Assembly: GCA_019358935.1 (NCBI GenBank)
Contig: JAHHIK010000016.1
Span: forward strand, 1-64,000
Direction: 5' to 3'
Length of the DNA stretch: 64,000 nt
Origin: Tolypothrix carrinoi HA7290-LM1
GTDB taxonomy: Bacteria; Cyanobacteriota; Cyanobacteriia; Cyanobacteriales; Nostocaceae
Below, one piece after another: positions 2,327-11,316 of this stretch. The notes beneath the pieces are model-generated. The model saw only the letters and a list, made by a program, of their open reading frames with translations, did no database searches and was not told the origin of the DNA. A program made the translations under genes and the position numbers. Every line of letters starts with the position of its first letter. Within the stretch, counting starts at the first letter, position 1.

Positions 2327-2774
2327 TTTCTATTGTGTACACAGCAGCCCTAAAATAATTATCCCGTGCAACAGACGTATTTTTGGATTTGGTGTTGTCA
2401 GCTGCGATCGCTAGGAGCGAGGGAAAAAATTTTACTGCCTTATTTTTCACACACTTATATAATTTTTATCCAGCAAAGATTAGAGAAGTTACTATCCCAT
2501 AACGGGCGGTGTGCAGTCGGCTGTTATCTCTAGTCTCAGCCATCTTATATTTACCTCCTAAATCTCTGGAATTCAAGCTTATACTTCTGTAGGTTTGTGT
2601 AGATACTATTTCTATAAAATCTGTTACTGACTATGCGTATCAGTATTCCAGATAACCTGAAGAAAAGGTTTCACGTAGCCTGTGCTATCCGTGGACTGAA
2701 AATGAGTCAAGTCATAACTGAGCTAATAGAACAATGGTTAACCAAGTTTTTTTATTTAGTGAGCCAAAATCCTA

Positions 2775-3734
2775 ATGAAGAAAATTTTGATTTTGTCAGC
2801 AAATCCTATTAATACAGGGAGACTGCGCTTGGATAAAGAAATGCGGGAAATTCAATTGGCATTAGAAAGGTCTAGAAGCTGTGAGGAGTTTGAACTAATC
2901 TCCAGAGGGGCAGTTCGTATTGATGACTTGCGTCGTGCATTACTGGATAACGAACCACAAGTTGTACATTTTTCCGGTCACGGGACTGGAACTAATGGCA
3001 TAGTGTTGGAGGATAGTTCTAGTGATGCCCAACTGGTTAGTACGGAATCATTAAGTAATCTATTTGATCTATTCAAAGCCAAAGTCGAGTGTGTTTTGCT
3101 CAATGCCTGTTACTCAGAAATACAAGCTGAAATAATCCATCGCTATATTGATTGTGTGATTGGTATGGAACACGCCGTCAGTCATATTGCTGCTATTAAT
3201 TTCTCTACAGCATTTTATGACGCTCTTGGTGCTGGAAGAAGTTATGCAGAAAGTTTTGAATTCGGTCGTAATAATATTGACCTGCATGGTATACCAGAGT
3301 CTTTTACCCCTAAAATCAAAGTTAGAAATAACTCTAAAACCTTATTCTCTAAGAAGGAACCAAAATCTAATATGACTGGGAACCGCAATATTCACATTGT
3401 TAGTGGCAATTACAACGAGCGTATTGAGGGTGATTATATTCAAGGGAATAACTACGAGAATGGCAGGCATCAAGACCTTGCTGACGCTGCTGCTGAAATT
3501 CAAAAGCTTCTAGAACAGTTAGACAAATCCTATCCTACTGATACAACTTTGGGCAAGATGCAAGTAGCAGCCGAAACTATTAAGGCTATTGAAAACAATC
3601 CTAAGAGGGCGCAACGGGTAACTAGTGCTTTAAAGGCTGGTAGTATTCAGGCTTTAGCGCAACTACTTAATCATCCTGCGGCTAGTTTTGTCATTGATGC
3701 ATTAGAAGATTGGCAGAAAACTAAGAGTAGTTAA
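2775..3734 (+). CDS. CHAT (caspase-like) domain protein with N/G-rich linker motif and C-terminal helical domain
   Basis: KKILILSANP start, HFSGHG (His) and LNACYS (Cys) catalytic dyad motifs. Confidence 0.9.
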   Translation: MKKILILSANPINTGRLRLDKEMREIQLALERSRSCEEFELISRGAVRIDDLRRALLDNEPQVVHFSGHGTGTNGIVLEDSSSDAQLVSTESLSNLFDLFKAKVECVLLNACYSEIQAEIIHRYIDCVIGMEHAVSHIAAINFSTAFYDALGAGRSYAESFEFGRNNIDLHGIPESFTPKIKVRNNSKTLFSKKEPKSNMTGNRNIHIVSGNYNERIEGDYIQGNNYENGRHQDLADAAAEIQKLLEQLDKSYPTDTTLGKMQVAAETIKAIENNPKRAQRVTSALKAGSIQALAQLLNHPAASFVIDALEDWQKTKSS

Positions 3735-3796
3735 ATCTTTTTTATAAGCAGGTATTAACTTTCTTTGATATCGAATATACTTACTCAAATTTAATC

Positions 3797-5809
3797 ATGA
3801 CAGAAAATCAGAAGCCAGAGAATCGCAATACCCACATCAATCAAGGCAATAACTTTGAGTCAGTTGGCAGAGATGTTGTTACTAATTATCATTTTCTAAA
3901 TAACCTACTTAACCGACGACATATTCACTTTATTCAGTTTTTAATTGTAGGTGTAGGTTTGGCTTTTATTTACTTAGGATTCGCAAAGTTATTAATAAAT
4001 GGTCATTTGAATAGTAAAGTTATAATCTCACTCGGTTCAGGTTGTTTAATACTTGCGCTTTTTTGTAGTTACTATGCTTTATTCTGGAACCCAAATAAAT
4101 TAAGTGTTAAAGTCTGGGTCTGGAGACGTTTGGCTGCTGTAGGTATAGTTGGAATTCCCTTTTTAACGGTCGTGGGAGTTGCTTTTTGGATGATCGATCC
4201 GACTAATACAATTGTCACTCTCGCTAAATATACTGTAAATGGAGAATACCCTAATCAACATTTAGAACAAAATGCATCAAATAGCGAGAGATTAAAACAA
4301 GATATTTATTTTTTAAGTAACAATAATCTTCATTTTTTAAAAAAAGAACAATTTGTAGAAAAACCAGATGTTCAAATTAAACAAATAGAAGAAGCCTTTA
4401 AAGATTCGCAAAGGGAACAAGCTAGGAACGAAGCTAAAAATTGGAGAGCAACTGTTGCAATCTGGGGAGATTACTCCACTTATTATAAAAACAAAGATGA
4501 GATATTCATCACTTCTAATATTGACTTATTGAAAGAACAATTACTTCTTTTTCTGCCAAATTATAAAAATAATAAAAAGGGTGAAATTGAAATACCTGAT
4601 ATTAAAGATGCAATCAGACCGTCTGAGCTAAATATAACAGTAACTCAAAATAAAAATGAGCCAGAAGATTTTTCCAAAATGCAAGCATACTATATCAATT
4701 TCATTGCTGGGCTAGCTGAGTACAAGTCTGGGTTAGCTCATTGCGTTCATAAAAAAGATAAAATACCTGAAGAAGCTAAAAAAAGCTTGGGTAAATCTCA
4801 ACAATACCTAAAAAAAGCAAACCGATACCTAGAAGAAGCAAATAAATGGCTAAACAAGATAGAAAATGAGTCTTCATTGAGTAACTTTCCAGACAAGCAA
4901 CAGCTTGTTGATTTTCTTAAGGGTGTCACTGAGTTTTCTAATGGCAATGCCAGTTTATATAATGAATATTGTTCCAAACAACCTAATTCCTATGATTTAG
5001 CAATCAACAGCTTTACCGAAGCAATTAAACATGTTCATAAGCAACTTGTTACCTTGGATGACAGGCAGAATTCTTATGTTCCTGAGTATCCTTACAAGCT
5101 TATTCCTGCCAGTTATAGGCAGAATTCTTATGTTCCTGAGTATCCTTACAAGCTTATTCCTGCCAGTTCTGACCCAGAAGAAATACTTGATTTAGATTTT
5201 AATGATAGTGATGACAACCAAAAAACTTGTGGTCACAAAAGGGATAAAAATATTAGGGTCAGTGATAACAACCGTTCTGACTCTAAAATTTTATTATCAA
5301 GAATTCACCATAATCGAGGAATTGCTTATCAGATGAAAGGAAATATTGAAAAGGCTTTAGAAGATTATGAGCAGGCAATTAAATACGATCCCAGAACATA
5401 TGCATTTTGTATGAGTATAAAAACTGCTTATGCTAATCTGAATAATTACAAATCTGCTATTAATGGCAGTCGCCTAAGTGTCAATGTTCCAAATGTTGAA
5501 GATAGTCTTGCCTATTACAATAAGGGTAATATTTATTTAAGGCAACGTGAATATAAGCAGGCTGTTGGAGAATATCTACAAGCAATTAGATTAGATTTAA
5601 ATTTTTATGAGGCTTACAACAATTTAAAAATAGCTGTCTCTGAGGCTTCTCAAAAATTATACTCCAGTTTTACACAAGCAGCGGGTAAAAGTTTTGAAAA
5701 GATGCTTGAAGACTTGCCTAATCTGTTGCCTAGATTGTTTAAGGGGTTAATTGAGGAAGTAATACCATCCCTTGTAAAGGCGCTAGCCATATATAGTAAT
5801 TTAAAATGA
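3797..5809 (+). CDS. Membrane-anchored tetratricopeptide repeat protein
   Basis: About 3 N-terminal hydrophobic helices and C-terminal TPRs (HHNRGIAY..ALEDYEQAIKYDP, AYYNKGNIY..EYLQAIRLD). AT-rich gene. Confidence 0.8.
   Translation: MTENQKPENRNTHINQGNNFESVGRDVVTNYHFLNNLLNRRHIHFIQFLIVGVGLAFIYLGFAKLLINGHLNSKVIISLGSGCLILALFCSYYALFWNPNKLSVKVWVWRRLAAVGIVGIPFLTVVGVAFWMIDPTNTIVTLAKYTVNGEYPNQHLEQNASNSERLKQDIYFLSNNNLHFLKKEQFVEKPDVQIKQIEEAFKDSQREQARNEAKNWRATVAIWGDYSTYYKNKDEIFITSNIDLLKEQLLLFLPNYKNNKKGEIEIPDIKDAIRPSELNITVTQNKNEPEDFSKMQAYYINFIAGLAEYKSGLAHCVHKKDKIPEEAKKSLGKSQQYLKKANRYLEEANKWLNKIENESSLSNFPDKQQLVDFLKGVTEFSNGNASLYNEYCSKQPNSYDLAINSFTEAIKHVHKQLVTLDDRQNSYVPEYPYKLIPASYRQNSYVPEYPYKLIPASSDPEEILDLDFNDSDDNQKTCGHKRDKNIRVSDNNRSDSKILLSRIHHNRGIAYQMKGNIEKALEDYEQAIKYDPRTYAFCMSIKTAYANLNNYKSAINGSRLSVNVPNVEDSLAYYNKGNIYLRQREYKQAVGEYLQAIRLDLNFYEAYNNLKIAVSEASQKLYSSFTQAAGKSFEKMLEDLPNLLPRLFKGLIEEVIPSLVKALAIYSNLK
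5063..5168 (+). repeat. In-frame 54-bp tandem duplication inside the TPR gene
   Basis: Identical 52-nt blocks starting at 5063 and 5117, encoding RQNSYVPEYPYKLIPAS twice. Confidence 0.95.
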
Positions 5810-6004
5810 AGCTACATAGAAAAGAGCTTCTAAAATGAAGTTATAGGCGTTACTAGCAAAGCTGTCACTCTCTACTATGTAATGACTAAGCAGGGTAGTT
5901 TCATACAAGTAGAGAAAAATTTTTCTCAAGCTGGTTTGATAAAATACGTTATGTGTAGGCGCGAATTTTATTCGCCAGCCTAATTAGTGCAAGATAAATA
6001 TAAA

Positions 6005-6273
6005 AAATCACGCGCTATTTTTTGTTGGTTTCCCTTCGTAAATCCCTCTGGACTAGACTACTCAACTCAAGCTAGGCTCGGTACTACCGGACTCATTCAC
6101 TTCGTAGAAGTCAAACCGGAATGTCCGGTAGTACCGAATGCCTAGCACAGTCAAGAGTAGGCTAGTGATGTATGATTAGGCTAAACGCAAGGACGGCGAT
6201 GCCTGCGGCAACTGCTGACGCAGAACGCACCGCCCAAATTGCAAGGTTTCAACTCAACAAATGCGCGTGATTT
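6005..6273 (-). ncRNA. Retron msr-msd-like ncRNA, copy B (begins at the SWIM gene stop codon)
   Basis: Perfect 11-bp terminal IR aaatcacgcgc (6005-6015) / gcgcgtgattt (6263-6273). Long hairpin 6053-6165 with perfect 15-bp stem tcggtactaccggac/gtccggtagtaccga. Scaffold motifs shared with copy A. Confidence 0.8.
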
Positions 6274-7909
6274 ATCTACACTGACGAGCGTGTTGCATTC
6301 GCAGTGCCAGAATGTGTTCGCAAGGACCTTTATACAGCTTGTTTTGCTGATGCCAGTTGCAAGTACATTCTGCGTCGATTATACGCTCATCTCTATCAAT
6401 CGTCAAAGATAAATTTAAAGTTTTATCTTTGTCGTTAACGCTACCTTGCAAAATCAACGCGCCATTGTCACTTACTGAAGTCACGCGCACTGCATTTTGA
6501 CTCAAAAACCGAGTTGCGCTTTCTTCTCGTGCGTTGGCGAAGCGCAAACGCTCGATTGGTAGCGGTTCGCGGCTGAGTTCTCGCACGCGATAAACTTGTT
6601 TATTTAAGTCGTAAATTGCACGTCCGGCTTGCGTGTAAGCACTTAAAGCACCCAACACCGCCGTGCGACTTAAATTTAAGCGTTCTGCAAGGCGATCGGG
6701 ACTTTCTAACCAATTTTCCCGCAGCGCGTCAAAAATCAGCTTTTGCGTCCATTCGTCAACGTCAGCGCGGGGTGCCATTAAATCAAAATTACCAGATTGC
6801 GCCCAATCGTTTGCCGTCCATCCAGATAAACCGAGGGTAAAGGACATATCGCCCAAATCAGCGACGTAGAATGAAGGCATACCCGTACCCAACAGATGAA
6901 CGGTGAACTTTTTGGCAACCGGGATGAGACGTTCTAAAATGTTCAGCCGGCGACGTCCCCAAACGCGAATTGTTTGGGGTTGAATTCCGGTGTAAGGCGA
7001 TCGCGCACAAACTACTTCAATATTCCACGGTTCAAATACCACCCGCACGGGTTCACCTGGGTTCAGATGATAGCGCATACTGCGCGGTCCGGTTGTCTCT
7101 TTATGGCGACGCAAGACAAAACAGATATTGTGGATATCCATCGGGTGTAAATCGAACTGCGTCGCGGGTAAAGACATCGCCGAACTAACTTGTAAAAAGC
7201 CTCTTACCCAACTATCAGGTAAATCGATTTTGACTTCTTTATAAGCTTCTTCGTTTGTAGTTTGAACTTCAAACCCAGAAGGATCAACTTGTAATTGAGT
7301 ACTCTTATAACTGCGGATTTTCTGAAACTCATCGTACAGCGCTGCCGAGTAATCAACATTCGTTGTACCGCAAGCGAATTCATTAATATTTTTAAAGACT
7401 TCGTAACTTGCACTCAAGCGTCCATAACTCGATTCATCTACGCTAAAGCACTCAAAAAATACTTCATCCGGATGAACTGTGATTACTGGATCGAAGACAA
7501 AATAAAAGTCTAATTGCTTTTGCCAAACATAACGCCTAAATTTGTCTCTAGCTTTATAATAAGGAGCAAAGCGTTCATAACTGCGCTTGCTTAACTGATT
7601 TAATTCTTCTTGTAGTGGTTTAATTTTGGCAGCGACATCTTGACGCATAGCTGCAACTAATTGCCAATCAATTTCATCTTGCTTCGCACGCCATTCTTTG
7701 TAAGCAGTTTTGTCTTTTGGTTGAAAACGCATATCAGAGACAACCACATCATGTAAAGCGCTAATCGCTTCACGAAAAGCGACATTTTGCCGCAATTCTC
7801 CGACAAAGTAAGTCGGTGGACGTTTCGTATCTGGAGAAAATGACATTTGAGTGTTTCCACCGCTTTCGCTAACAGCGGTACTTTGTTTATAAGCGTAGTT
7901 AAATTCCAT
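6272..7909 (-). CDS. SWIM zinc-finger protein (retron-associated)
   Basis: C-terminal CTC-x-GPCEHILA SWIM motif and DPVITVHPD/WVRGFLQV conserved blocks. Lies between the WGR gene and the RT. Confidence 0.88.
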   Translation of the reverse strand: MEFNYAYKQSTAVSESGGNTQMSFSPDTKRPPTYFVGELRQNVAFREAISALHDVVVSDMRFQPKDKTAYKEWRAKQDEIDWQLVAAMRQDVAAKIKPLQEELNQLSKRSYERFAPYYKARDKFRRYVWQKQLDFYFVFDPVITVHPDEVFFECFSVDESSYGRLSASYEVFKNINEFACGTTNVDYSAALYDEFQKIRSYKSTQLQVDPSGFEVQTTNEEAYKEVKIDLPDSWVRGFLQVSSAMSLPATQFDLHPMDIHNICFVLRRHKETTGPRSMRYHLNPGEPVRVVFEPWNIEVVCARSPYTGIQPQTIRVWGRRRLNILERLIPVAKKFTVHLLGTGMPSFYVADLGDMSFTLGLSGWTANDWAQSGNFDLMAPRADVDEWTQKLIFDALRENWLESPDRLAERLNLSRTAVLGALSAYTQAGRAIYDLNKQVYRVRELSREPLPIERLRFANAREESATRFLSQNAVRVTSVSDNGALILQGSVNDKDKTLNLSLTIDRDERIIDAECTCNWHQQNKLYKGPCEHILALRMQHARQCR

Positions 7910-7928
7910 AATTTTCCTTATATTTTTA

Positions 7929-8127
7929 AACGAACCGCAAAGACGCGAAGAACGCGAAGATAAAACGTAGAAAGAGAGGATAAAGAAAATCGCGAATTAA
8001 TAGAACTAATCTGGATATTCAAGTAGAAACTTTGATTGTTTATAATCAAAACAAAAAAATATTTGTCAACGTCTACCTCTTTTCTTTTTTCTCTTGCTTC
8101 GCGTTCTTCGCGCCTTTGCGGTTCGTT
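7929..8127. repeat. 31-bp near-perfect inverted repeat flanking the WGR-SWIM intergenic region
   Basis: aacgaaccgcaaagacgcgaagaacgcgaag / cttcgcgttcttcgcgcctttgcggttcgtt (1 mismatch). Confidence 0.85.
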
Positions 8128-8133
8128 ATTTTA

Positions 8134-11100
8134 TTAAATTCTAACTTCAGCAACAGGCTTTACATCAATCGGCAACGAAAACTGAGGATAAATTTTATTA
8201 ATTTTTAACATAATTTGTATCGCCTTTGCTTTATCTCCAATTGCCATAGTTACCGATTGTCTCGTCATAATCTCAGCAACAACTTTAGCGGCTTCTTCGC
8301 TTTTTTGTGCTTCAGCATCCAGAAAAGCAAAAATTCGCTTTTTCGCAACACGTCCGCAATTGACGCGGCATAATACACTTATAAAATAAGGCATCAACTC
8401 CCGCAAACGTTCTGGATTATCTACAGCATACTCTTGCAAATAGTTAGTTGCAAATAACTGCATATCTGCTGATGGATGTTCGCTGAATTTCAAGAGATAT
8501 TCTTGTCCATCTGCTTGTTGAAAATTGCGAGTTAATAAATCACGTCCAAGTTTACGCGCATCTTCACGCACACTATCACAAATGCTTACCAAAATTTTCG
8601 GGGTGAATTCTTCTGAACCAAATTCTGTAGTAAATATCCTCAAAGCAAATTCTCGCGAATCTTGCCATTTTGACTCTAGCATCCGCACCGCTGATAACAT
8701 TTCTTCGGAATCTAAACGCAAGCGATTTAATATTTGTAAAAACATCTGCCGTGCAGCTTCTCGCACTGATAAAATTTCGTGATTGGCAAGTTTGACAATT
8801 TCGCTAGCGGCAAATTCTGTTATCCAAGCGTTGCTATTTGCACCCAGCACTACACCACCTAATTCTTGTGCAGGTGAAGACTTTGCTGCAAGTAAATTTA
8901 AAGCGATTTCTTTAGTAACGCTTGTCATCCATCCCTGCAAATCTTCCCGCAACAAACGTACTAAATAACTGTGAACACCTTCATGTTTTTCGGGAGTTAG
9001 CAGCACTTCGGTAAAATCAAATGCTAAATCGATGCTGAAAGCTGGATAAGCGGCTCCTAAACGGTGGATAATAGGTTTAATCGCATTGCGAATTTCTGCA
9101 TTTGCATTCACTGCCATTGCGACAATTAAAATGCTTTCCTCACCTATGAGTTTCTCATCAGGTAATTGTCCAAAAAGCCTAATACCGAAAACTTGCAATA
9201 ATTCGTAAGGTGATGCCAATAATGATTCAATTATGTGGGATGGCAAGTTTTCGGCACTAATTTCGTGATTTAATAAAATCTGATCGGCTAATTCTTGAGT
9301 TTCCACTAGCGGATGTGTCAACAAATCATTGATGACACTTAAACCTAAGTTACGCAATTGAGGTGCAAAACTGAAGAGTAAAGTTTCACCAATTTCTTTT
9401 GCCATCTCCCCTTGGTTTGAGGATAATGTTAATAATTCGGCAATGATGCGTCCAATTAATACTTTTGCTGTGGTATCTGTGAGAATAGTAGAACTTAAAA
9501 GTCTCCGGGCAAAGGTGCGAGTGTCAGTCTGTTGACTGGTGACTAAAGCAGCGATCGCATTACTATCTTGCAAAAAGTATTCGCGTTTTTCATCTATCCA
9601 GTGGTAAGCTTGAATACGAGCGCGTTCATACACGCAATTGGCTAAGGCAAGAACTAATTCAATGTTGGGTGAGGTGGAATTGTAGTTAAGCAGCGCTAGT
9701 TCAAATGCAAATTGCGCTGTAACTTCATAAGGTTGATTAACAAGTTTGATGATTGTAGGTATATTTACATAAGCACAGAACTCAGGATTCGCTCGTAAGA
9801 CTTTGACTGCAAAATGATGAACGCGATCGCACTCACTCTGCAATAATAAATCTAAAAGCGCATCTGGGTTTTGCTCCCAAAGTTGCCCAAAGGCTTCTTC
9901 TCTAACTGCCGGTTCTGCATCTCCCGGTTTATAACCTTCCCGACACTGCCACGCTTGAGAATTGCGTTTCAACTCATAGCGGGGACTGTTTTCGTAAAGT
10001 ATATGGTTAAATGTCAAATATCCAGCAAAATCATCCCAATTGCGTCGAAACTCAGTGCGTCTCCTAATAGACGGGTTCCAGCGATAGAAAACTGACTCTC
10101 TTACTTCTTCAGCATCTTCATCAGAATATTGAAGAAGAACACCTACAGCCATTTTAACATAGTCAGGGTCACTTTCTTCGCCTAATTGTTTGAGAGTACG
10201 CCACACCCGACGTAGCAAATATTCACGAGTATTGCTGCTGTAAGCGATTCTTGACTGAGGATGTTTTAGTTCGGCTTCAACTTCACTACCTTTAGATTCA
10301 TAACGCCCTGTTTGGCGATTATAATTACCCCATAAAGTCTTTCTTAAATGTCCCCCGCTTGGCAGACTAACATAATAAGATTTGCTAAAGAAACCCGCTT
10401 TCTCTATCTCTAACCTATAAGCAAGAATACCAAACACTTCAGCATCGTGGCGATATTCCGCCATTTTGAAAATATGGCGAAGTTGTTTAAAATAGTTTGG
10501 TTTGAAAGGTGCGGTGCATAAAATATCAAGTAGTGCAGGACGAACGTATTGATTATCAATTTGATAAATCGTGTCTAAGACGGCAAAATGCTTGTAGTTA
10601 CCGTGTTCTAGATAGTTAGATAAAGCTGTTGCAAACTCCTCTGACGAACCATTTCGCGTTAAATTTTGTAACTCAGGTGGTAAAAATTCAATTAATTCAG
10701 CTTGCAAAGAAGCTGTCTTTTCGGCATCAGATAGTTTTAAGAGTGCTTCAAAAGCGATGCGGCGAACAAATTCGGGATTTGAGAGATTATTATAAAGGTG
10801 AGTGACGGGAGCGATCGCACTATCATCCCCACACCAACCCAAAGCCCAAGCAATGCAATAATCTCTTAGTGGTTCACCAGTACCAATAAGTTTGATTAGT
10901 AAAGGTGTCGCTTCACTAATTTTAAGTTCTCCGGCTCGCCAAATTGCCCTTTCTAACTTTGATTTACTCGGTTTGTCGTCAGCAAGGCGATTGAGAATTG
11001 CTTGTTTGCGTGGATCGTCGCTAGACTCAACTGGCGATGGTGTCGATTCTAAATTAACTGGTTGAGCGTTAACATCACGATATCCCTTTTTGGTCTTTTC

Positions 11101-11316
11101 GCCAACCAGCTTGTCGAAGACTTGTTGCGCTTCTGTTAAAGGTACGGAAGAAGTAGTTTTGGTACCTTCTTTTAGATTAGTGCCCCGCCGTCCGTAACGG
11201 AAGTTAACTACATAACGATCTTCACCAGTCTGACAAAGATCCACTTCGTAGATTTTATCAGAAGTTCCTTCTTGATAGTGCAGTGTAGTCTGTTTAATTA
11301 ATTTCATCGCACCCAT
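8134..11316 (-). CDS. WGR-domain protein with long ARM/HEAT-like helical region (retron-associated)
   Basis: N-terminal SDKIYEV..VNFRYGRRG..EKTKKGY WGR signature, then about 950 aa of helical repeats. Confidence 0.88.
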   Translation of the reverse strand: MGAMKLIKQTTLHYQEGTSDKIYEVDLCQTGEDRYVVNFRYGRRGTNLKEGTKTTSSVPLTEAQQVFDKLVGEKTKKGYRDVNAQPVNLESTPSPVESSDDPRKQAILNRLADDKPSKSKLERAIWRAGELKISEATPLLIKLIGTGEPLRDYCIAWALGWCGDDSAIAPVTHLYNNLSNPEFVRRIAFEALLKLSDAEKTASLQAELIEFLPPELQNLTRNGSSEEFATALSNYLEHGNYKHFAVLDTIYQIDNQYVRPALLDILCTAPFKPNYFKQLRHIFKMAEYRHDAEVFGILAYRLEIEKAGFFSKSYYVSLPSGGHLRKTLWGNYNRQTGRYESKGSEVEAELKHPQSRIAYSSNTREYLLRRVWRTLKQLGEESDPDYVKMAVGVLLQYSDEDAEEVRESVFYRWNPSIRRRTEFRRNWDDFAGYLTFNHILYENSPRYELKRNSQAWQCREGYKPGDAEPAVREEAFGQLWEQNPDALLDLLLQSECDRVHHFAVKVLRANPEFCAYVNIPTIIKLVNQPYEVTAQFAFELALLNYNSTSPNIELVLALANCVYERARIQAYHWIDEKREYFLQDSNAIAALVTSQQTDTRTFARRLLSSTILTDTTAKVLIGRIIAELLTLSSNQGEMAKEIGETLLFSFAPQLRNLGLSVINDLLTHPLVETQELADQILLNHEISAENLPSHIIESLLASPYELLQVFGIRLFGQLPDEKLIGEESILIVAMAVNANAEIRNAIKPIIHRLGAAYPAFSIDLAFDFTEVLLTPEKHEGVHSYLVRLLREDLQGWMTSVTKEIALNLLAAKSSPAQELGGVVLGANSNAWITEFAASEIVKLANHEILSVREAARQMFLQILNRLRLDSEEMLSAVRMLESKWQDSREFALRIFTTEFGSEEFTPKILVSICDSVREDARKLGRDLLTRNFQQADGQEYLLKFSEHPSADMQLFATNYLQEYAVDNPERLRELMPYFISVLCRVNCGRVAKKRIFAFLDAEAQKSEEAAKVVAEIMTRQSVTMAIGDKAKAIQIMLKINKIYPQFSLPIDVKPVAEVRI

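Follow-up and report, generated by a model that had tools for sequence, protein, structure and literature searches.

Can a membrane protein with tetratricopeptide repeats (TPRs) switch on a caspase-like protease through a short peptide that both proteins carry? The question is raised by two adjacent genes of Tolypothrix carrinoi HA7290-LM1 at the start of contig JAHHIK010000016.1 (C16) of its 7.96-Mb genome (G000), of which we analyzed positions 1 to 64,000 (the window; coordinates given without a contig or locus name refer to it). The first gene (2775–3734, + strand) encodes a 319-aa protein in which a CHAT protease domain is followed by the motif and a helical domain, and the second (3797–5809, +) encodes a 670-aa receptor-like protein comprising the motif, three transmembrane (TM) helices, an alpha/beta domain, and TPRs. 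The genes are collinear, with the effector first and a gap of 62 nt between them. We propose that they form a sensor–effector pair with a homotypic link, likely of the amyloid (cross-beta) type, and by analogy with known systems we put the probability that this pair works as described at roughly 0.55. For the wider motif family, homotypic coupling is very probable, and an amyloid basis of the coupling is, by the same analogy, probable.

The motif family has the core GNYNERIEGDYIQG. In the CHAT protein the motif, NRNIHIVSGNYNERIEGDYIQG, starts at nt 3381 (aa 203–224; 3381–3446, +), and in the TM-TPR protein its diverged copy, NRNTHINQGNNFESVGRDVVTN, starts at nt 3821 (aa 9–30; 3821–3886, +). 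Nine of the 22 residues are identical between the two copies, and their local alignment score of 53 was reached by none of 5,000 shuffles. The genome backgrounds used were 27,747 open reading frames (ORFs) and 7,997 N-termini; among the former, only these two ORFs match the consensus NRNxHIxxGNxxEx[IV]xxDx[IV]. A receptor profile built from 30 other partner N-termini, with the window protein left out, ranked the TPR N-terminus second of the 7,997 (35.4 bits, E 2.7e-9), with third place at 8.5 bits. A peptide motif common to the CHAT linker and the TPR N-terminus, as claimed in a preliminary description of this DNA, is therefore well founded; the further claim that the two copies are alike as DNA fell away, as the 36 of 66 identical nucleotides are at chance level (unrelated windows reach 37 and 36 of 66) and add nothing. 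In composition the motif is enriched in N, Y, G, and I and depleted in L, P, and K, with Q flat and V low. It is disordered in both structure models, and a four-copy complex prediction (score 0.02) gave no evidence either way.

The preliminary description had set pairing of the motif in neighboring genes elsewhere as its test, and such pairing proved to be common. In the same genome, a loose motif pattern gave four matches, all within two adjacent gene pairs. The second pair lies on contig C48 (14422–17720; L001:8423–11721, −) and consists of a CHAT-motif-helix gene (350 aa) followed by a motif-NACHT-TM gene (721 aa) whose product has the layout motif, NACHT, multiple TM helices, and zinc ribbon; it is the canonical form and the better test subject. 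The fetched loci contained 51 motif+helix ORFs with the motif variant that we call class A (43 without duplicates, eight of which lacked a downstream ORF of at least 80 aa). Of the remaining 35 motif+helix genes, 29 had the motif within the first 60 residues of the downstream neighbor when an effector-only profile was used, vs. 5 of 1,586 other ORFs, and each of the five positive control ORFs comes from a locus with a motif+helix gene of its own. Among the six misses are the window itself, L035, where the wrong ORF was picked (its true partner is among the five positive controls), and L235, whose membrane-protein neighbor carries the motif at aa 299. When ORFs of at least 60 aa were counted and genes at contig ends excluded, a motif partner was present for 32 of 40 (24 with a Walker A motif, eight without), a count that is partly circular, since the receptor-side profile was built from 30 of these partners. 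The partners scanned against Pfam were NACHT, NB-ARC-TPR, or nSTAND1-WD40 proteins, and the typical receptor is therefore similar to NOD-like receptors (NLRs).

Clusters of three or four class-A proteins (NB-ARC-TPR, NACHT, pentapeptide-repeat proteins with a C-terminal motif, and CHAT-motif-helix) were observed in L034 (1224–9303), L035, L036, and L041, and suggest many-to-one networks. Further NTPase-free partners with a matched motif were short multi-TM proteins (some of which may be NACHT deletions), a single-TM protein, a TM protein with a near-C-terminal motif, and a soluble TPR-like protein (L049:7153–7863, L096:7277–7819, L101:7139–7858, L004:1881–2357, L235:1985–3181, and L168:5149–6195).

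Comparison of 59 short CHAT genes with their neighbors, sorted by our own patterns (19 pairs were left unclassed), revealed several unrelated motif classes, each matched on the neighboring protein. Mean local scores within classes A, B, and C were 84, 67, and 49, vs. 25–30 between classes, and approximately eight of the 59 pairs share nothing. The class labels need 10 changes on the CHAT tree; the class-C pair of L049 is nested in a starred class-A clade, and one class-A variant occurs on both partners in L038 and L157, which are located on separate branches. In four of the pairs (L217, L230, L098, and L228), an EAD-like or TIR-like globular domain, named by eye, is shared in the same slot. 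The motif is thus an exchangeable plug. No pair-specific co-evolution was found among 18 pairs within class A (cognate mean 90.5, non-cognate 89.1); specificity therefore lies at the level of the class, and the NACHT-TM protein of C48, whose motif is of the same class, may be just as able to fire the protease of the window. Class A is tied to the bacterial amyloid signaling sequences (BASS) by the NB-ARC-type partner of L159 (5009–5845), which carries a class A motif and then a C06-type motif in tandem, an arrangement that would link one sensor to two effector types. C06 is a published BASS cluster (PMC8086366 file 1), probably BASS4 as judged by order and size, and in the published NLR N-terminus BAZ20405.1 a class B motif precedes C06.

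The effector has the CHAT (caspase-HetF) fold with a His-Cys dyad, and protease activity is predicted. PF12770 matched at 46.6 bits against a cut-off of 24 (E 3.9e-12; domain approximately aa 1–185), and the best fold match of the model was SAVED-CHAT 8tl0, an activated filament (E 3.7e-12, 26% identity). Both residues of the dyad, which the preliminary description had called intact, are present: His69 (HFSGHG; 2979–2981, +) is nearly invariant among 53 homologues, and Cys112 (NAC; 3108–3110, +) occupies an invariant column. Close relatives of the gene were found in filamentous cyanobacteria.

The motif of the effector is internal rather than C-terminal, as it is followed by a conserved, unnamed helical domain of 87 aa (aa 233–319; 3471–3731, +) that the models predict confidently (aa 230–318); C-terminal motif copies are present in four other proteins. 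The helical domain of the window member gave scattered weak hits and no Pfam or NCBIfam family at cut-off. Foldseek returned nothing at E ≤ 0.001, and the highest VIA Z, 5.8, reflects an arrangement of helices that is common. Sequence comparison with the PDB returned mostly designed armadillo repeats with no single significant stretch, and structure and profile searches gave no assignable match to a Death-like, Bell/HeLo, or EAD fold. The Atlas contains the domain in unnamed cyanobacterial clusters of 97–121 aa, and a TCAD2 score of 0.88 is the sole hint, a lead only. Across the order, 86 of 201 genomes contain the motif+helix module, and within the family 73 of 301 do at a stricter cut-off. 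The module forms the end of CHAT, pentapeptide-repeat, and other proteins and also exists as a separate protein of about 120 aa. Another C-terminal helical domain, unlike the first, was observed behind class B, class C, and further motifs of CHAT proteins (L049, L069, L076, L078, L084, L085, L087, L090, L096, L099, and L101), and the motif-then-helix layout therefore recurs with at least two helical families.

The effector gene may also yield a second product. Of 33 fused proteins, 30 have a methionine ahead of the motif, and its start context (median 3.3 bits) equals the median of true starts, compared with −2.0 for other internal methionines of the same genes, although the lysine-rich linker could inflate these scores. 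In the window this residue is Met200 (ATG at 3372–3374, +), with a context of 2.3 bits, above 96% of internal methionines. Because the methionine is conserved, its context is start-like, and stand-alone genes of the same form exist, an internal start at 3372 that would give a 120-aa motif+helix protein is likely. The frame that opens at the internal ATG outlives a decayed CHAT region in L243, where it is cut to 96 aa, and in L246.

The receptor gene has three predicted TM helices (aa 49–67, 75–93, and 112–130; 3941–4186, +; hydropathy and charge count). Basic residues lie before TM1 and between TM2 and TM3, a placement which suggests that the N-terminus with its motif is likely cytoplasmic and that the rest of the protein, including the alpha/beta domain and the TPRs, is outside. 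The alpha/beta domain (A.xxIWG.Y; 4199–4726, +) resembles DUF3280/TolB_N/FlgO-type domains in the alignment and in Atlas structure rows, where the structural likeness (TM-score 0.39–0.48 by query) is a lead only. Two TPR repeats are recognizable by alignment (aa 502–533 and 572–610; 5300–5626, +), and the rest are degenerate. The protein has no NTPase domain or Walker A motif.

A word-index search for the receptor returned generic TPR proteins only and no close homologue. By profile, three weak matches in 61 genomes (L133, L134, and L135) led to a 3TM-TPR family of 1,119 clusters, with which the TM and alpha/beta region of the window receptor aligns. L134 is a single CHAT-3TM-alpha/beta-TPR protein without the motif, and P0129 and P0134 are likewise all-in-one CHAT-3TM-TPR fusions. 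L133 (608–2880) has an upstream gene that is Bell-like by eye, with a motif common to both proteins, and L144 (803–3369) shows the same arrangement; this motif matches C06 by eye (PMC8086366 file 1), so that a membrane receptor that is not an NLR would bear an already known amyloid motif. The N-terminal region of L135 is long and unnamed, and in L143 the receptor is fused to PNP_UDP_1. Three of the best 150 family representatives start with CHAT and about 10 with a C06-like peptide (by eye), and the 12 of 19 long N-termini that were scanned comprised three PNP_UDP_1, one TIR_2, one EAD10, one CHAT, and six unnamed regions. The slot before TM1 therefore appears to take immune effectors directly or via a coupler. 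Some members are preceded by a helical protein of another kind (156–162 aa; L145, L150, L151, and L153). A search of 389 genomes for an NNFE-type receptor subfamily found none, the inspected matches of that type being ordinary class A receptors. The preliminary description had called the receptor a membrane TPR sensor and not an NLR; an NTPase-free membrane protein of a receptor-like family agrees with this, but as the usual motif partner is a STAND/NLR-type NTPase, the label "not an NLR" fits only this locus and a minority of others.

How might the pair work? A ligand outside the cytoplasmic membrane would bind the 3TM-TPR protein, which would then cluster. The cytoplasmic N-terminal motif of the receptor would nucleate a cross-beta assembly and template the CHAT motif into a filament; CHAT proteins would join via their motif, and crowding would switch on the His69/Cys112 protease. 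The likely outcome would be defense or regulated cell death, and the 120-aa motif+helix isoform from the ATG at 3372 could amplify or damp the signal and so tune its threshold. In this scheme the amyloid state, ligand, substrate, and death outcome are modeled on BASS and Bab/Agp systems, and activation by polymerization on the SAVED-CHAT filaments of 8tl0. A more ambitious reading, which we hold only tentatively, is a receptor-adaptor-caspase pathway like PGRP-LC/Imd of the fly, with an NTPase-free TM TPR receptor that would sense outside the cell, a new amyloid motif, a two-product gene, and class-wide networks; in it the internal start would give a short adaptor and the orthogonal classes would be swapped like plugs, and the tentative grade covers these parts jointly.

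Several observations weigh against the proposed coupling. In the family, eight of the 40 genes have no N-terminal motif partner, and many helix-domain proteins, such as pentapeptide-repeat fusions, lack a matching neighbor; the compared pairs include kin that are not independent, and for this reason no P value is given. In the window, the receptor copy is the most diverged seen, with 8–9 of 22 residues identical to its neighbor (median 15, range 10–18 in 22 pairs; eight more were not alignable by the anchor pattern), and it scores 0–2 bits on the effector-side profile. Six of 23 receptor-motif positions, including both tyrosines, carry residues seen in none of 28 family receptors; the second tyrosine is invariant in all 28, and the first belonged to the pattern used to select them. 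NACHT-type proteins are the partners of all five of the closest CHAT relatives (that of L155 being a 106-aa fragment), so that the window receptor has probably been swapped in. Among the best 150 representatives of the 3TM-TPR family, it is the only class-A carrier, and most have a short plain N-terminus. Its degenerate TPRs also contain a perfect 54-nt tandem duplication (5063–5168, +), at which a contig of sequencing run X1 breaks.

As the receptor motif has lost both tyrosines, the family may couple by amyloid while this pair is uncoupled, the TM-TPR protein decaying or its motif having drifted out of register and the CHAT protein being orphaned or answering only to the NACHT-TM protein of C48. 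We regard this as unlikely, though deserving of serious weight. The lowest cognate identity of 23 pairs is consistent with it, as are the better fit of the CHAT motif to the C48 NACHT N-terminus (score 92) than to its own neighbor (53), the degenerate and duplicated TPR region, the 33% GC content, the lack of a close homologue, and the broken partners elsewhere in the family (81, 106, and 71 aa). However, the receptor gene is an uninterrupted frame of 670 codons whose TM and alpha/beta region still aligns with its family, and the core G-N-x-x-E and the alternating pattern are retained. Moreover, when the receptor copy was compared with 59 effector tails, it scored best with its own neighbor and the neighbor's close relatives (56, 53, 50, 49, and 48), which may reflect co-adaptation.

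An improbable alternative to amyloid coupling is that the motif is a homotypic adaptor of another kind, acting by beta-strand addition or as a small beta-helix in a finite complex, like globular EADs. EAD-like and TIR-like domains do fill the same slot, the effector motif lies between two folded domains that could hinder long fibrils, and Q and V are not enriched, unlike in BASS, a point that also counts against our proposal. The length, the N/G-rich make-up, the placement at STAND N-termini, and the tandem of L159 nevertheless match fibril-forming families, whose tested members are all reported to have formed fibrils (10.1101/2020.01.06.895854; 10.1101/2024.11.07.622273), and RHIM and cRHIM show that amyloid motifs can lie beside folded domains (PMC13506858).

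That the motif is instead a recognition or cleavage site, at which CHAT would cut itself (freeing the helical domain) and its membrane neighbor, is very improbable. The motif does lie in a disordered linker right after the protease domain, its acidic residues are kept (E4 and D9), and caspase auto-processing has been proposed for related membrane systems (PMC7159879). Matched pairs without CHAT exist, however, with stand-alone modules (L004, L257, and L263) or a pentapeptide fusion (L251), closely related CHAT domains exchange motifs of unrelated classes, and the all-in-one CHAT-receptor fusion has no motif.

We rejected the reading of the pair as the effector arm of the surrounding type XIII retron as barely credible: it sits between two non-coding RNA (ncRNA)-like copies and between the SWIM and reverse transcriptase (RT) genes, but runs on the other strand; none of the 20 other retron loci fetched, the close relative G223 among them, carries it; in other loci unrelated cargo fills the interval; the RT of the host retron is interrupted; and by inspection of the ORF list the C48 paralogue has no retron gene within 19 kb.

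The retron genes, identified by PADLOC, are on the − strand and comprise SWIM and WGR-HEAT genes (SWIM_XIII and WGR_XIII; 6272–11316) and an RT (RT_XIII; 120–1007) limited to the first 295 of approximately 470 codons. The RT stops at codon 295 at a multi-copy element (1–125) that recurs at the ends of 14 or more contigs, and codons 295–470, the catalytic half, are located on C65 (122–649); the host retron is thus probably inactive. The msr-msd-like ncRNA copies A (1203–1450, −) and B (6003–6270, −) flank the CHAT and TPR genes and an alpha/beta hydrolase gene (1517–2326, −) that is older cargo, also present in G223. When folded, copy B forms terminal arms and a long hairpin (z −7.4); neither copy matched Rfam. 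G223, whose SWIM and RT are 99% identical, keeps both ncRNA copies and the hydrolase and lacks 2379–5948, the insert bearing both genes, which has 35% GC against 42% for the genome and is covered, with both junctions, by contigs of run X1, which may derive from the source sample. Of 25 SWIM matches, 20 were fetched, and in none of these loci was the pair in that interval or the TM-TPR gene present at all. The claim that the module is nested in the retron therefore survives as a description of position between the ncRNA copies; the pair itself is a recent, low-GC insert, evidently cargo in a tolerant site to judge from the locus comparison.

In 12 of the loci an RT lies downstream, often with unrelated genes between; for seven of the 20, the DNA fetched on the downstream side of the ncRNA contains no RT (in one case it stops with the contig), and in L130 the RT is upstream. 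About 4.5 kb past the ncRNA, L129 carries another CHAT pair (1–1474), an unrelated CHAT with a C-terminal motif matched at the N-terminus of the next gene. Type XIII loci can hold two diverged msr-msd-like copies with cargo between them, as in L112, L117, L126, and L127. Short repeated elements (ACGCAAAG units), which are common in the genome, flank the retron genes (1090–1200 and 7930–8130), and promoter and terminator scans gave no excess over shuffles.

With which known systems does the pair compare? CHAT-BASS/NLR pairs are known from multicellular bacteria as BASS1-10 (Dyrka et al., 10.1101/2020.01.06.895854). As in these, the window has adjacent collinear genes with the effector first, a motif of about 25 aa, rich in N and G, that recurs at the receptor N-terminus, a filamentous cyanobacterial host, a CHAT effector, and all-in-one versions in its family. 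The class-A make-up, rich in N, Y, G, and I and poor in L, P, and K, is close to the reported BASS bias (N, G, Q, V, and I up; K, P, and L down), but with Q flat and V low. In the window, by contrast, the motif is internal and followed by a conserved helical domain instead of being C-terminal, the receptor spans the membrane without NACHT or NB-ARC, and the effector gene has a candidate internal start. In the part of the BASS dataset searched (PMC8086366 file 1), GNYNE and ERIEG were absent and the first YNE occurred only in negative sets; the check was made as a text search and, for a single validation fold and some of the NLR-side list, by eye, and the class-A motif was not among the BASS1-10 training or NLR-side sequences so covered. 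GNYNERI occurred in no paper found by literature search, and in the text that this search covered, outside the BASS figures and supplements, neither the motif nor the helical domain nor a BASS receptor that spans the membrane was described. The comparison also drew on parts of PMC7889193, PMC10907252, 10.1101/2022.07.19.500537, PMC12261475, and 11 supplementary files of PMC9815663.

The closest precedent for a non-NLR sensor is Bab/Agp (BASS11), an antiphage system of E. coli (Ibarlosa et al., 10.1101/2024.11.07.622273), in which the N-terminal amyloid motif of a TPR-type sensor activates the neighboring effector; BASS11 also occurs with CHAT. Agp, however, is a TPR-GreA/B-PIN protein and Bab a Bell-like membrane-targeting one, whereas the window has a 3TM receptor and a protease, and the few BASS11 residues given in the text, which fall short of the full consensus, do not match class A by eye. 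EAD-coupled conflict systems (Kaur et al. 2020, PMC7159879; Kaur et al. 2021, PMC8195603) likewise have a homotypic module on effector and sensor, caspase-like effectors, and membrane-associated sensing, and EAD-like domains occupy the same slot in CHAT relatives and EAD10 occurs in the receptor family; their coupler is a globular EAD and that of the window a short unfolded peptide, and EACC1-caspase systems have one TM helix and are mainly actinobacterial in the same accounts. The type XIII retron (Mestre et al. 2020, PMC7736814) accounts for the flanking RT, SWIM, WGR-HEAT, and ncRNA, and has no CHAT or TPR component among the parts described there, the window pair being an insert.

Two further systems resemble the proposed mechanism. 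SAVED-CHAT is polymerized by its nucleotide-binding SAVED domain and not by a peptide motif or a membrane receptor. Its structure 8tl0 is nonetheless the best match to the CHAT domain, and its activation accompanies filament formation. In Drosophila, PGRP-LC spans the membrane, Imd contains a death domain, and the caspase is DREDD. The likeness to the PGRP-LC/Imd cRHIM (PMC13506858) is an analogy of working only: a membrane receptor whose cytoplasmic part bears an amyloid motif, an adaptor that combines motif and helical domain, and a caspase, with the difference that the helical domain of the window was not matched to a death domain.

The motif family is the better experimental target and the window locus an odd member that shows receptor swapping; the system offers a small testable case of amyloid assembly activating a bacterial caspase, for which naturally matched and mismatched pairs are ready controls of specificity. 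The pair works like a BASS pair but lacks two of its defining features, the C-terminal motif and the NLR receptor. What is likely new is an internal motif before an unnamed helical domain, a probable internal start, and an NTPase-free membrane receptor. If this is true, bacterial amyloid signaling is not limited to cytoplasmic NLR-like or TGP sensors, and an amyloid signal would cross the membrane from a large unnamed family of 3TM-TPR receptors to a caspase-like protease.

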